A stretch of DNA of 64,000 bases, taken from the NCBI GenBank assembly GCA_964016885.1, contig OZ024760.1, positions 33,356,001 through 33,420,000 on the forward strand, in the 5' to 3' direction. Numbering within the stretch: position 1 is the stretch's first letter; every line of letters begins with the position of its first letter. The notes beneath the pieces were generated by a model. The model did not search any database. It was not told the origin of the DNA and was given only the letters and a program-made list of their open reading frames with translations. Origin of the DNA: Eledone cirrhosa. Taxonomy: Eukaryota. The position numbers and the translations under genes are program-made. Below are positions 2,420-61,530 of this stretch, one piece after another.

Positions 2420-2564
2420 AGGATTAGAATACTGGAGCGTGTTTGAGTCAAATACCCTCTTCGTATTATAGAAATGACAGTAAAAGGTATAGCTCAATGC
2501 AGTTAAACAGAGCCAACAAATTAAGAGAGTAAAACAAAGAATCCTTTAATACATCAAAAGTTTT

Positions 2565-2612
2565 TATTAGCCGACAATGTTTCGTCCTATTAAGGACTCA
2601 TCAGGGCAATCA
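2565..2612 (-). ncRNA. Type I minimal hammerhead ribozyme in PLE pseudo-LTR
   Basis: Minus strand: gcc CUGAUGA gucc-uuaaua-ggac GAAA c-auu-GUC ggc, followed by AAUAAA. Confidence 0.88.
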
Positions 2613-4540
2613 AAACAACAAGAGGTAATATCGGCAGATACAAGCCAGAAACTCTGAAGAATATGGAGTGTACATACACTAATGTCTTACAAAGATATAC
2701 GATAATAAAAATGAAAATAAAGATAAAAATAATAAAAATATATAATAACTAAGGATGTAGATAACATTAAGAACTATATTACAAATAAGCCACCAACCTA
2801 AATCTAAATAAATTTGGTTATATAGAGCAGGAATTATATATAACACAATATAATACATTATAATAATAATATATTTATACCAACATTAAAATTCCAAATT
2901 AAAAATCAAAAGGTACAATATATACATGTATATATGTGCGCGCACACACACACACACACACACACACACACACACACACACACACACACACACACATATA
3001 TATATAACAATACACATATCTATGTTCTATTACACAGAAATTAAGCCCTATTAGAAGTTTGAATATTAAAAATAAGCATGGTAATAGTGAAAATAATACT
3101 AATACATCTACCCAATATACATGAGGCAATAATATGATATAATTACAAGAAACACATATAACAAATAATAAACAACAAAATTATATAATTCAATACAATA
3201 TAATAAAGTAGAATAGATAATCCCCGGTTAATTTACAGAAACAATATAGATGTCACAATGAAATACAATGATAAAATGTTAACATTATGTTAACAAGTAC
3301 CATAAACAATATATACAAATTGATTCATACTGGGTTACATAATAAATGAGGAAATATAAATCATATAATACTAAAAAAAACTATAATGGTACAGGGAAAA
3401 ATTGTGATGTTACAGAAAAAATATGATGTTACAGAAAAAAATATACAGACATCTAACATGATATGTAAAGTCTAAATATCATAATGTTACATATTACAAT
3501 ATTAAAAAAATCCAGACATCTTACATGATATATAAAGTTTAAATATCATAATGTTATATATAATGAACGGTAAGTAATAAGGATCTATATCATAATGTAA
3601 TATATTTTTAAATTGGCATAAAATATATAAATACTTATAATTACAAGGTTAGTAGACAGACATATGTGTGGATGAGTGAGCGAAGCCAGACAGTGAATAG
3701 TAAATAGAATATAGAATAAAACAAATAAATACAATCAACCGGAAATTACAAAACAAAAGCAAATGTATACACATTTAGGCCTCGCGTGCATTAAGAAATT
3801 AGGTAAACACCAAGGAAAGCGATCATTTTAAATGACTCCAAACCCTATCTGATAAATTAATATTAAAAATATCGAACCCGTCCAATAAGGTAGTATAATA
3901 TTAGCTGTAGTTTAAGTCATTAAAGTATATAAACTTTAATGTATCATTACAAATGTTTACAAAAAGGAATAAAATTACACTATCATATACGCAACGATAT
4001 CTAAAAAACTGACTTAAGTAGAGTTAAGGTAGGCTAATGGGGACAGAATTGACAAAATATATGGAGGGTGTGAAGTGGCATAAAATATATTCGATATACT
4101 ATAATAAATAGTAGAACGGAGCATAAAAGAGGGGGGGGGGGTTAAATATAATCATATTCAATCTGGAGGGGTTGACAATAAGTTTATGTTTGCATGGGGG
4201 GGAGGGGAAGGGGAGGAAGGGGGGGGGGGTTGTCGATAGATAAATCAGAGTAGACTTAGAAATAAAAATAGAATTAAAAATAAAAATAAAAATAATATTA
4301 AAATTAAAATTAAAGTTAATAATAATAAAAAAATATAAAAATAATAATAGAATAACGTAAGTGGCGTAAAGTGTGTAATCTTATGTATACTAACAAGGTG
4401 TAATAGTGAAGACATAGATATGGTACAGTGGCCAAATGATTATGAGAGCTAGAATGAAGAGTCATCAAAAAACCAATGATAACATTAATGTTGGCAAACA
4501 AAAGAACCCAAACAAAAAACTAAGTAATGGAATATATCTG

Positions 4541-57881: not shown

Positions 57882-59589
57882 TAAGATCAAAAGATGGTTC
57901 AATGAGTTCCATGTATTTTATTATGCGCATTTCAAAAACAAATATCATCATGCAATAACATTTGTGTTTTCATCAGATAAAATAGGAAGACATGATATGA
58001 AGGTTAAAAACACTTGTGGATAGTGCAGTTTTAAATCAACATATGAAAAGTAGTTTTAGATTGATGTGTGATATTGGGGAAAACATTTTTTTTTGAGTGG
58101 GGGAGAGGTTGGAAAGGATGAAAAAGAGGAGGAGATGAGAGTAAAAAGAGGAGGAGATGAGAGTAAAACGTGGAGGGGGAGGAGTATAATGAGGAAGGAT
58201 GAGATAGGAGGAGAGGGGGTGATAGAGAGAGAAAGATAGCTTTTATAACTGAGAAAAATATATTGTTTTACATAGAGAGGTTGAAAAACCGTCGGAAGAT
58301 AATGTATAAATTAAAAGAATTTGAAAATTAACGAAAAGAAAAATAATGTAAAGTTAAGGTTTGTATATTGAAGGGTTTAATATTATGTGCGATGAAAAGA
58401 AATTGTTAATATGTATTAAGAATAATATTTAAGGGTTTAATAATATGTGCGATGGAAAGAAAATGTTGATATGTATTATTAAAAAAACAAAAAGTAATGT
58501 AAGTAAGGATATATTGTGAGATGAGCATGAATAAGTTAGATGAAAGTGAGAAAAAAATAATGAATAGAGGATGAATAATCCAACGTCAAAAAAATGTTTA
58601 TGTTTACGAAGGATTTGTTCAAGGTGATATAAAGTAAGAATATATTGTATTGTGTAATAATTGTTTCTATGTTAGGCACAGTGAGAAAAGGTACAGATTA
58701 GGGGTTAGAAATTAAAAGAAAAGAAAAAGAAAAGAAAAGGAAAAGGAAGAAAAGGAAGTGATAAATAGGAGTGATATAGAATGAGTAACAAGTATTATAC
58801 ATTATATATTTATTTTAATTTTAATTATATCTCATATAAAATAATACAACTGGCTTTCCACAAAATACATATAGTTAGCACCCCAAACACTAAATTGGGA
58901 TTATACTAACGTATATCCTAATGTTTGTTGAGTGAGATGGTTACCAGTCGGAGTTTAGCTTAAAGCTTTCTCTGTTATTGTATTAATTATATTAATTTTA
59001 ATTGTATATTAATTTTGATTTATTTTGAAAAATTGGTTGAATTTTACTTGTTCTGCTTATCTTGATATTAAGTTCTGGTATATCAAATTATTACCATAGA
59101 ACCACCTTAAATCATAGACACACTATATATTTCCGGGGGTACATTGTACCCTCAGATATATATTAACCTTATTCAAAATTCTCCAGTATGTAGAGAAAAA
59201 TCCTGTCGTTCTATTTAGTTGCTAAAAATCTTTTTTGGTAGCGATCATAGACGGCTAGTCCACGATTTCCCGCCTTCACTATACACCAACGTATTCATGG
59301 GTCACTTTCACGACCTTTCAGACCTGTATTAGTTGGAGTGAGGTTATATATTTTGTTGTTCCTGGGGTTTTTAACCCTAGGATAGGAAAAGGCTTCTCTG
59401 ATGATCTTTGCTTTTCCATTAATATCTACTTGATATCTAATGTTTTGAAAAGTGAAACTGTACAGTAAGGGCCATTTGAATAGGTAAATATTTATATTAT
59501 ATTTTTTAATTTTGATTAATTTTAATTGTATATTAATTTTGATTATTTTGAAAAATTGGTTGAATTTTACTTGTTCTGCTTATCTTGAT
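57882..59589 (-). mobile_element. PLE-like 3' region or non-autonomous element with an HHR at 57914-57984
   Basis: HHR region similar to 38391-38670; ~70-bp direct repeat at about 58995 and 59520. Confidence 0.6.
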
Positions 59590-60202
59590 ATATATATATA
59601 TATATATATATATATATATATATGTATATATATATATATGTATATATATATATATGTATATATATATATATATATATGTATATAGTATATATATATATAT
59701 ATATATATGTATATATATATATATATATATATGTGTGTATATATATATGTATATATATATATATGTATATATATATATGTATATGTATATATATATATAT
59801 GTATATATATATATATGTATATATATACATATCTATATGTATATATATATATGTATATATATATATGTATATATATATGTATATATATATATATATGTAT
59901 GTATATATATATATATGTATATATATATGTATATATATATATATATATATATATATATATACATATATATATGTATATATATATGTATATATATATATGT
60001 ATATATATATATACATATATATATATACATATATATATATACATATATATATATATATCTATCTATATATATATATATATATATATATATATATATATAT
60101 ACATACATATATACATATATATATATACATATATATATATCTATATATATATATATATACATATATATATATATATCTATCTATATATATATATATATAT
60201 AT

Positions 60203-61530
60203 ATTGTTATACTTTGGGAGGGTCATGTTGCCAATAAGAAACACACGCACCAGTTGCTTTCACTTCAATTTATTATAATAAATTTATAAATTTATAAATT
60301 TCTGGTTGGTACGGGTGATGAGAAATGTGTCCCGCATGTGCAACCCCGAAGAACTAGCGAGACATATACAACACTTCATCCACCGTATGCAGTTCTCTGG
60401 CTACAATCAGAGAGATAAAATAAGAGTGTATAGAGGAGCCAGAACCAAATGGGAAAAAATGGTAAATAATGACATAAATGGGACCTGCCCCTTGTATAGG
60501 AGCTAATTTTGGAATAGAATAGAAAGAACTAGGAACAAGGCTAATAGAATAAACTCATAGCAATAAATACCAGAGTGTAATGTTCATCGATACAACCCCT
60601 AGAGGTGAATTAGCTTACAAATTTAGAAGGGCCCTAAATAAACATAAACTCAATATTAAGATAGTAGAAAGACCAGGTACCTCCGTAAAAACACTTATTA
60701 GCAAGACATACCCTTTTCAAAGACCCTCATGTATAGATAAGAAATGTATAACCTGTAAAATAAACCCCATATTAACTGTAAAACTAGAAATGTAGTGTAT
60801 AGCATAAGATGTACTGAAGGACAATGTAGAGACAAAAATATAGTGTACATAGGTGAGACAGCTCGTAGTGTAGGGTAACGGATAAATGAACACTGGCGAG
60901 ACCTTCAAGATAATAAAGAATCATCTGTACTCTACCAACATGCTAAAATAGAACATAAGAGTAAATTAGAGAACATAGAAATAAAAATAGAATCTACACA
61001 CAGAAAAGACGTAATGTTTAGACAAATTACAGAGGCAATAAACATAAAAGAATTACAACCAAAATTAAATAGAAAATATGAGTGGAACAGCAACATCACA
61101 ACTTACAATTAAGGACAAAATGAAAACACACACACACATAGAACAAACAACCAACCAGTAACATGTAAATAAACAAATAAATAAATGAACATAAACACAC
61201 ACAGACACCCGGATGTGGCGCATGCGCAGACTGAGCACACAACACACACACAGAAACAAAGAAAGGAATCCCCAGTCACTGAAGAGGTCACAGAGTGTGT
61301 GACGAAAGAACTATGACTATATATAAACAGCTATCTGGTTGTGGAACGAACCAACCAACCAGAAATTTATAAATTTATAAATTTATAAATTTATTATAAT
61401 AAATTGAAGTGAAAGCAACTGGTGCGTGTGTTTCTTATTGGCAACATGACCCTCCCAAAGTATAACAATATCGGTTTCAACACAGGATTTCTGATAAAGA
61501 ATCTTGCTAAACGAATTCAGAAACGAAATA
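60203..61530 (+). mobile_element. 5'-truncated, disabled copy of the 17020 PLE with inverted 5' pLTR (60203-60308); HHR 61274-61318
   Basis: High similarity to 19425-20748 with stops and frameshifts. Confidence 0.92.

Follow-up and report, generated by a model that had tools for sequence, protein, structure and literature searches.

Penelope-like elements (PLEs) that encode an endonuclease (EN+ PLEs) are known from head-to-head insertions in which pseudo-long terminal repeats (pLTRs) are inverted and a tail of 30-40 bp is found on one side only, for example in Pen2a_Av (PMC3846280; PMC8557442; here and below, cited sources are described as far as the consulted portions of their texts go). In elements of this type, pLTR and tail extend over the first codons of the open reading frame (ORF), targets are (TA)n, the pLTR contains a hammerhead, and the target duplication is short; the tail was termed 'optional' and was attributed to antisense self-priming or endonuclease resolution (PMC3846280, PMC8557442). 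The origin of tandem and inverted PLE insertions has been named as an open problem (PMC8557442). In vitro, the PLE protein PAc (Poseidon, Anolis) cleaves and extends both strands of an AT-rich target, using two internal start sites in the 5' part of the ORF that flank the tail and define it, and a dimer is predicted; the steps after priming were left unvalidated (PMC11167929). We analyzed 64,000 nucleotides of Eledone cirrhosa DNA (contig OZ024760.1, positions 33,356,001 to 33,420,000), referred to as the window, which is part of a 3.0-Gb genome. The PLE insertions in the window and further copies sampled across the genome resemble Pen2a_Av-type elements in the features listed above, and suggest that both nicked strands of the (TA)n target probably prime reverse transcription on a single sense RNA, one at a short and the other at a long site.

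A preliminary description of the window, made from the sequence alone, had listed 15 insertions, each made of two arms with outward-facing 3' ends bordered by simple repeat. Self-comparison after masking of simple repeats, end-by-end reading and arm alignment showed that all 15 are indeed inverted arm pairs ending in simple repeat or (TA)n, with 95-100% identity over the aligned portions of the arms. An extra tail was present on one arm only in every case, with a length of about 25-135 nt rather than the 30-135 nt claimed. Three copies of one family (17021-20749, 54648-54933 and 60201-61531; the main family) end at the same short (S) and long (L) sites, and, as had been stated, the long end is found on either arm, namely on the small arm at 17021 and on the long, ORF-derived arm at 61531. 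The statement that nearly every insertion is two-armed held for the listed 15, but not in general. Arms without a partner were found in the window at 33040, 40917, 54219 and 61815, pieces of PLE ORFs at 25958 and 34672 likewise lacked an inverted counterpart, and only about 45 of 74 insertions in an unselected genome sample were two-armed.

The genome samples of the main family comprised the first 100 matches to an anchor sequence (unselected) and 40 stretches around short-end matches, all mapped onto a natural copy. Sampled loci beyond the window carry L-numbers as labels. Before counting, we removed L173, which duplicates L169, the rearranged L151, a mirrored copy of L172 and one of the two copies at L167; the S+L copy L039/L308, although resolved, stands outside the counted set. 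Of the 81 curated two-armed copies that remained, 79 combined one long with one short end (binomial p about 1e-21 against 0.5), the other two being one LL and one SS pair. The fraction was 43 of 44 in the unselected sample and 36 of 37 in the sample selected for the short end. The long end was on the left in 34 of the 79 L+S copies. In three other families, for each of which 30 loci were fetched, two-armed copies were L+S in 10/10, 9/9 and 8/8 cases (27/27), with the 10/10 contributed by the retrozyme-like family with a 317-bp unit. Termini are thus fixed and not random, as the preliminary description had proposed from three copies. By hand count, the remainder of the 74 insertions in the unselected sample consisted of about 12 clean single arms (6 L, 6 S), with simple repeat on both sides, and about 17 interrupted or unresolved cases. 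L170, considered as a further SS pair, turned out to be two separate insertions. As a separate observation, mini-insertions of about 40-55 bp, with a long arm of 14-18 nt and a short arm of 24-36 nt, recur at L062, L125, L148, L153, L167, L170 and L172; they may represent either repeated microhomology joins or a tiny mobile unit.

Both ends are internal to the element. The main-family anchor had 27,851 exact matches genome-wide, of which 13,491 lead into TA (short end) and 11,832 into the tail, and 452 copies run through the long end into further element sequence that belongs to a 1318-aa ORF. In a natural 2.5-mer with a 4423-bp monomer, this ORF begins within the pLTR and extends across both sites, which are 60 nt apart within its first ~35 codons; both end in AATAT and are followed by CG. 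Because of the read-through copies and the 2.5-mer ORF that spans both sites, the long end cannot be the RNA end, where the preliminary description had placed one of the two priming events, and the 897-aa protein reported for this family is a 5'-truncated version of the 1318-aa product. Copies that read through the long end were also found in all three other families tested. Judged from their sequence, both end sites could base-pair with the target through AT-rich bases. In the family of the 46445 insertion, 8 of 12 short ends carried an expanded (TC)n run (4-31 units), whereas the two-unit motif was unexpanded in 21 of 21 long arms (Fisher p 4e-5; window 49790-49805 and 45972-46001, and L206-L235). 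The expansion suggests reiterative, telomerase-like copying at initiation; the alternative is later slippage beside the TA tract. A 46-bp tandem array in L112-L115 (C1:132947043-132947576) holds the main-family long-end read-through junction.

The arms of an insertion appear to derive from one template. Haplotypes agreed in 296 of 309 comparisons of polymorphic sites between the two arms of an insertion (27 insertions, without L089, L151 and L173), compared to 55% between insertions, a level reached in 0 of 10,000 permutations. This comparison, of a kind which the preliminary description had proposed, favors one template over two. Rare variants (counted without the alignment-ambiguous columns -100..-62 and -228..-205) were private to one arm in 105 cases and common to both in 8, indicating that arms are not generally homogenised after insertion.

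Dense A-to-G changes provided a further marker. They were initially found in one sampled copy, and targeted patterns then identified more. In L315, there were 104 A-to-G changes against 4 T-to-C, in dense one-stranded clusters. Edited sites favored a 3' G and a 5' A or T and disfavored a 5' C or G, in line with the neighbor preference of ADAR, so the marks have the appearance of ADAR hyper-editing, that is, of RNA edits that would have been written into DNA. Marks on the sense strand were common to both arms at 105/105 sites in L315, 32/32 in L335, 31/32 in L308 and 25/27 in L089. The arm-to-arm Jaccard index in these four young pairs was 1.00, 1.00, 0.97 and 0.93, compared to a median of 0.26 and a maximum of 0.62 between insertions (78 pairs), and to only 0.24-0.44 for copies with an apparently shared source haplotype. 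In L089, the marks are shared even though neither arm contains the other. Four further edited copies had no informative overlap. The preliminary description had argued that overlapping arms require two templates, a multimeric or circular template, or fold-back; the shared editing barcodes instead point to one RNA that was copied twice. As an observation of its own, the marks in L089, L308, L315 and L335 leave the tail untouched and end about 90-120 nt ahead of the short site, while in L309 they reach -6; the edit-free stretch is possibly a region protected by protein.

Some copies are informative about the form of the template. The long S arm of L308 has an internal pLTR that is edited and is matched by the L arm, whereas the terminal pLTR has no edits and is different at 55 of 733 sites. 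For the S arm of L325, the internal pLTR is the nearer one (11 versus 21 differences). The template in these two cases was likely a linear tandem in which one stretch was copied twice. A monomer circle as the general template is ruled out by L308, with its unedited terminal and edited internal repeat. Near-identical units in L117, L118, L327 and the retrozyme arrays are compatible with a circle.

Shared marks would also be expected if both strands primed on two RNAs, held by an asymmetric dimer and transcribed from one source locus that was already edited. This would explain L+S pairing and overlap without displacement, and older pairs do share marks only in part (0.47-0.67). Yet L308, L315 and L335, which apparently go back to one source haplotype, show three edit patterns, each limited to the two arms of its own insertion, and no other insertions had the motif variants of L089, L308 and L315, except for two short motifs that each occur in one other edited copy. 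We consider this explanation unlikely. Gene conversion between the arms of the palindrome, spreading edits after independent templates had been used, was also taken into account, since the arms lie side by side as inverted repeats, no difference was seen among 1009 sites in L315, and 8 rare variants are common to both arms. Conversion is decidedly unlikely in view of the 105 arm-private variants and the finding that none of 7 informative pairs combines an edited with an unedited arm over the overlap; it would also leave the L+S rule unexplained.

The geometry of the arms bears on how they were made. Arms overlapped in 61 of 79 pairs, as had been described for the listed insertions; in the other 18 of 79, the tail contains the whole L arm. 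In 46 of the 79 pairs, the S arm extended beyond the L arm on the 5' side by more than 15 nt, in 20 the L arm extended further, and in 13 the two stopped within 15 nt of each other, that is in 13 of the 61 overlapping pairs compared to 3.4 expected. The long arm of L141 and L142 extends only to +4, where the short site lies, as though the other primed cDNA had blocked it. In pairs with the longer S arm, neither arm can be a copy of the other, because each holds sequence that the other lacks. This is a problem for published proposals that a single primed cDNA folds back or self-primes (antisense template, PMC3846280) and that endonuclease resolution produces the tail (PMC8557442), since the S arm is the longer in most pairs although the tail is confined to the L arm. 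Pairs without overlap, sense-strand A-to-G changes on both arms of the barcoded pairs, and an L315 junction without a loop speak against fold-back as well. The near-equal pairs are where it fits best: the L arm is mostly equal or slightly longer, and several of the junctions lie in a natural palindrome. As a general route, fold-back is refuted by the S-longer and the non-overlapping pairs, and as an account of the data we rate it very unlikely; it may hold for part of the near-equal subset, which also fits two cDNAs that reached the same RNA 5' end.

Junctions between arms were nearly all different between copies, with a few very short ones recurring. The recurring ones would agree with, and the general diversity speaks against, a scheme in which most inverted copies are whole copies of read-through transcripts from a few existing inverted loci. 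Copying of this kind is seen in L309, which has T-to-C changes on the S arm and A-to-G changes on the L arm. This opposite polarity shows L309 to be an existing inverted locus copied whole from read-through RNA; a three-arm region (4874-7709), including the TA tract between arms, shows A-to-G changes on one genomic strand. No further arms with T-to-C changes (antisense-edited) were found by a pattern that was too narrow to match L309 itself, and this result is no evidence either way. With the same polarity on both arms in the four strong pairs, we regard whole-locus copying as highly improbable for most insertions. Some young copies are perfect palindromes, as read or assembly fold-back artefacts would be, but the two arms have distinct fixed end sites and distinct flanks, substitutions distinguish them, and one target duplication was found, so that an artefact is barely conceivable. 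This duplication, of about 14 bp in unique sequence, flanks L335. A scan for target duplications gave matches in 11 of 91 cases versus 1.7 after shuffling, most of them in interrupted TA tracts common to both flanks, and only L335 was clear. It fits staggered nicks that leave two 3' ends; elsewhere, TA would hide duplications.

The outward 3' ends, the mutually non-contained arms, the L335 duplication and the in vitro extension of both strands (PMC11167929) together support priming from both target strands at two fixed sites, which was the core of the earlier proposal. From the fixed internal ends, the L+S pairing, and the shared haplotypes and marks, we infer a use of one site per DNA end, followed by displacement and joining of cDNA ends. 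Nicks about 14 bp apart would leave two 3'-OH ends. Two reverse transcriptase (RT) active sites, probably in a dimer, would each start at a different site, with a few AT bases pairing with the RNA. The RT primed downstream would displace or follow the first cDNA, so that one RNA stretch would be copied twice; PLE RTs are not known to carry RNase H. Joining of the two cDNA 3' ends, through short homology or a template jump, and fill-in would follow. A single arm with either end type would result where one side remained without cDNA, and on tandem transcripts the S and L sites could fall in different repeat copies. A more specific version, to which we give about an even chance, is programmed double priming: one dimer would cut both strands and, with strand displacement, copy the same RNA two times, each DNA end having its own dedicated internal start site. 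The spacer between these sites would then be the tail, retrozymes would borrow the two-site signal, and the RT would stutter in telomerase fashion at the short site.

Several observations weigh against copying of a single RNA from both strands. LL pairs were found at L125, L286 and L312 and an SS pair at L155, with L286 and L312 coming from loci fetched for other patterns, beyond the 81. There are only four strong barcode pairs, and three older pairs have Jaccard indices of 0.47, 0.56 and 0.67, inside or near the range between insertions; L332 may be a two-template case. The arms of L315 are 100% identical, so arm-to-arm conversion may have occurred case by case, and an edited source locus missing from the assembly would produce shared marks as well. 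L309 does not conform because of its opposite polarity. RNA folding around the two sites revealed no unusual structure (z -0.40). Finally, the consulted text on the in vitro system reports no strand difference in start site use and no pairing in single molecules (PMC11167929).

Compared to Pen2a_Av-type elements, pairing has been counted here, tails span a wider range of lengths, and marks point to one sense RNA. The fixed second end corresponds to the published 'tail' (PMC11167929, PMC8557442, PMC3846280). The PAc system shares with the present copies the cutting and extension of both strands, the two internal start sites that define the tail, the AT-rich target and the predicted dimer. It differs in that the consulted text does not connect the two sites with the inverted layout or assign them to the strands of one target, and primer-template homology is not reported (PMC11167929), whereas both sites here have AT-rich terminal bases that could pair with the target. 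The arrangement is also reminiscent of a process outside the PLEs. In L1 twin priming, both target strands prime on one RNA and an inversion results, with one primer at the poly(A) end, the other at a variable internal site, and non-overlapping parts. The combination of a primer at the RNA 3' end with non-overlapping inverted parts does not describe the copies studied here, in which both priming positions are fixed within the element and roughly three quarters of pairs show overlap.

A single ORF with RT and C-terminal GIY-YIG endonuclease, as in EN+ PLEs, is present, and in the main family it contains YVDD and YIGET. Pfam RVT_1 matches were found in the ORFs, the main family's being below cutoff, and GIY-YIG matches fell just below cutoff in two ORFs outside the main family. 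The 452 read-through junctions and the 4423-bp tandem units show pLTRs arising from partial tandems with an ORF start within the pLTR, and inverted 5'-truncated copies with a one-sided tail are likewise in keeping with EN+ PLEs. Clades were assigned by motifs defined in PMC8557442. The main-family linker before GIY-YIG reads CIDKKCITC, with identical spacing in the 46888 ORF, in agreement with the CX2-5CxxC of Neptune and Nematis; the linker motif would place the main and 46445 families in either of the two. ORF remnants of the 2420, 27278 and 50695 insertions carry the CxCX5C of the Hydra clade, and the 2420 family also has DKT. A putative hammerhead core with stem II was recognized by motif in pLTRs at 20539, 61274, 2609, 32294, 32774 and 50178. 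No hammerhead was among the 150 of 291 Rfam matches listed for the window, which were microRNA families, nearly all on TA repeats and far below thresholds.

Animal non-LTR retrozymes consist of tandem ~310-bp hammerhead units and were proposed to be non-autonomous PLE derivatives (bioRxiv 10.64898/2026.07.22.740005). The window contains a similar array of 310-bp units that are tandem and non-coding, with a hammerhead core in each unit; the units of non-LTR retrozymes each contain a type I hammerhead. The 317-bp unit failed the scan for this core, and a degenerate core was seen by eye. The two retrozyme-like families (20822-22646 and 11752-15932) are 65-80% alike and have nearly the same tail sequence, and this near-identity of the tail suggests a common mobilising PLE. 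Retrozyme-like arrays here carry the L+S integration signature of PLEs (the 317-bp family); no text match for 'tail' or 'head-to' was found in the consulted portion of the preprint.

Table 1. Insertions and related features in the window (tail lengths in brackets).
Feature	Position	Strand	Ends and remarks
Two-armed PLE insertion, Hydra-type motifs (DKT, CxCx5C)	2420..10749		long left (~100-nt tail), short right; hammerhead core 2609 (-)
Head-to-head arrays, 317-bp non-coding unit (5.7 + 7.5 units)	11752..15932		short left, long right; related to 310-bp unit
Main family, small arm with long end	17021..17268	-	60-nt tail at 17021-17080
Main family, ORF-bearing arm with short end	17269..20749	+	5'-truncated copy of 4423-bp monomer
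897-aa remnant of 1318-aa RT + GIY-YIG ORF	17545..20238	+	YVDD, CX4CxxC linker, YIGET
Putative minimal hammerhead-type core in pLTR	20539..20586	+	motif scan; second copy 61274
Head-to-head arrays, 310-bp unit, hammerhead core per unit (retrozyme-like)	20822..22646		long left, short right
Two-armed, Hydra-type endonuclease remnant	27278..31275		long left (~133 nt), short right
Two-armed with hammerhead core	32232..32909		short left, long right (~70 nt); family anchor 15,891 matches
Two-armed	40092..40597		short left, long right (~72 nt)
Two-armed	41838..43422		short left, long right (~92 nt)
Two-armed	44673..46001		long left (~108 nt), short right ending in (TC)n run
Two-armed PLE, RT + GIY-YIG ORF 46888-48507	46445..49805		long left (~36 nt), short right ending in (TC)n
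Two-armed, hammerhead core 50178	49926..50557		short left, long right; by eye, tail within 50488-50557
Two-armed, Hydra-type ORF remnant 50954-52261	50696..53828		long left (~83 nt), short right
Unpaired main-family arm with long end	54219..54321	+	counter-example to two arms in nearly every insertion
Main family, mini-insertion	54648..54933		short left, long right
Two-armed, non-coding	56343..56861		short left, long right (~70 nt)
Main family	60201..61531		short small arm left, long ORF-derived arm right

PLE families often sit within TA tracts at one another's ends. In L057 (7607-7768), L088 (568-597), L143, L155, L159 and L313, main-family copies are neighbored by a related family, which has a tail of its own and resembles the main family in its terminal motif. 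In the window, a PLE ORF remnant with RT and GIY-YIG matches (34555-36106, plus strand) has no inverted partner. Outside the PLE pattern, the window contains a LINE-type RT fragment (23396-24421, minus strand; RVT_1 E 2e-17), two ORFs without Pfam match, one with repeated Cys/His motifs and one with polyQ (43-1216, minus strand), and a 209-bp direct repeat of 98% identity that is bounded by TA tracts (38925-39727).

Features already published comprise the inverted layout, a tail on one side only, a pair of internal start sites and extension of both strands (PMC3846280, PMC8557442, PMC11167929). No statement that L+S pairing on one RNA is obligate turned up in a literature search that covered few subscription papers and no supplements. 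The present contributions are a pairing rule counted in four families, a same-source control, cases with tandem templates and the signature in retrozymes. We conclude that the feature is real, and that it represents a known architecture with a testable mechanistic variant. The counted L+S rule, together with natural molecular barcodes, turns a known shape into a prediction that can be tested in the existing in vitro system. If the prediction is true, an RT related to telomerase would close the double cut that it makes itself by writing on one RNA from both sides of the break, in contrast to L1 and R2, and a direct integration signature would tie animal retrozymes to PLE enzymes.

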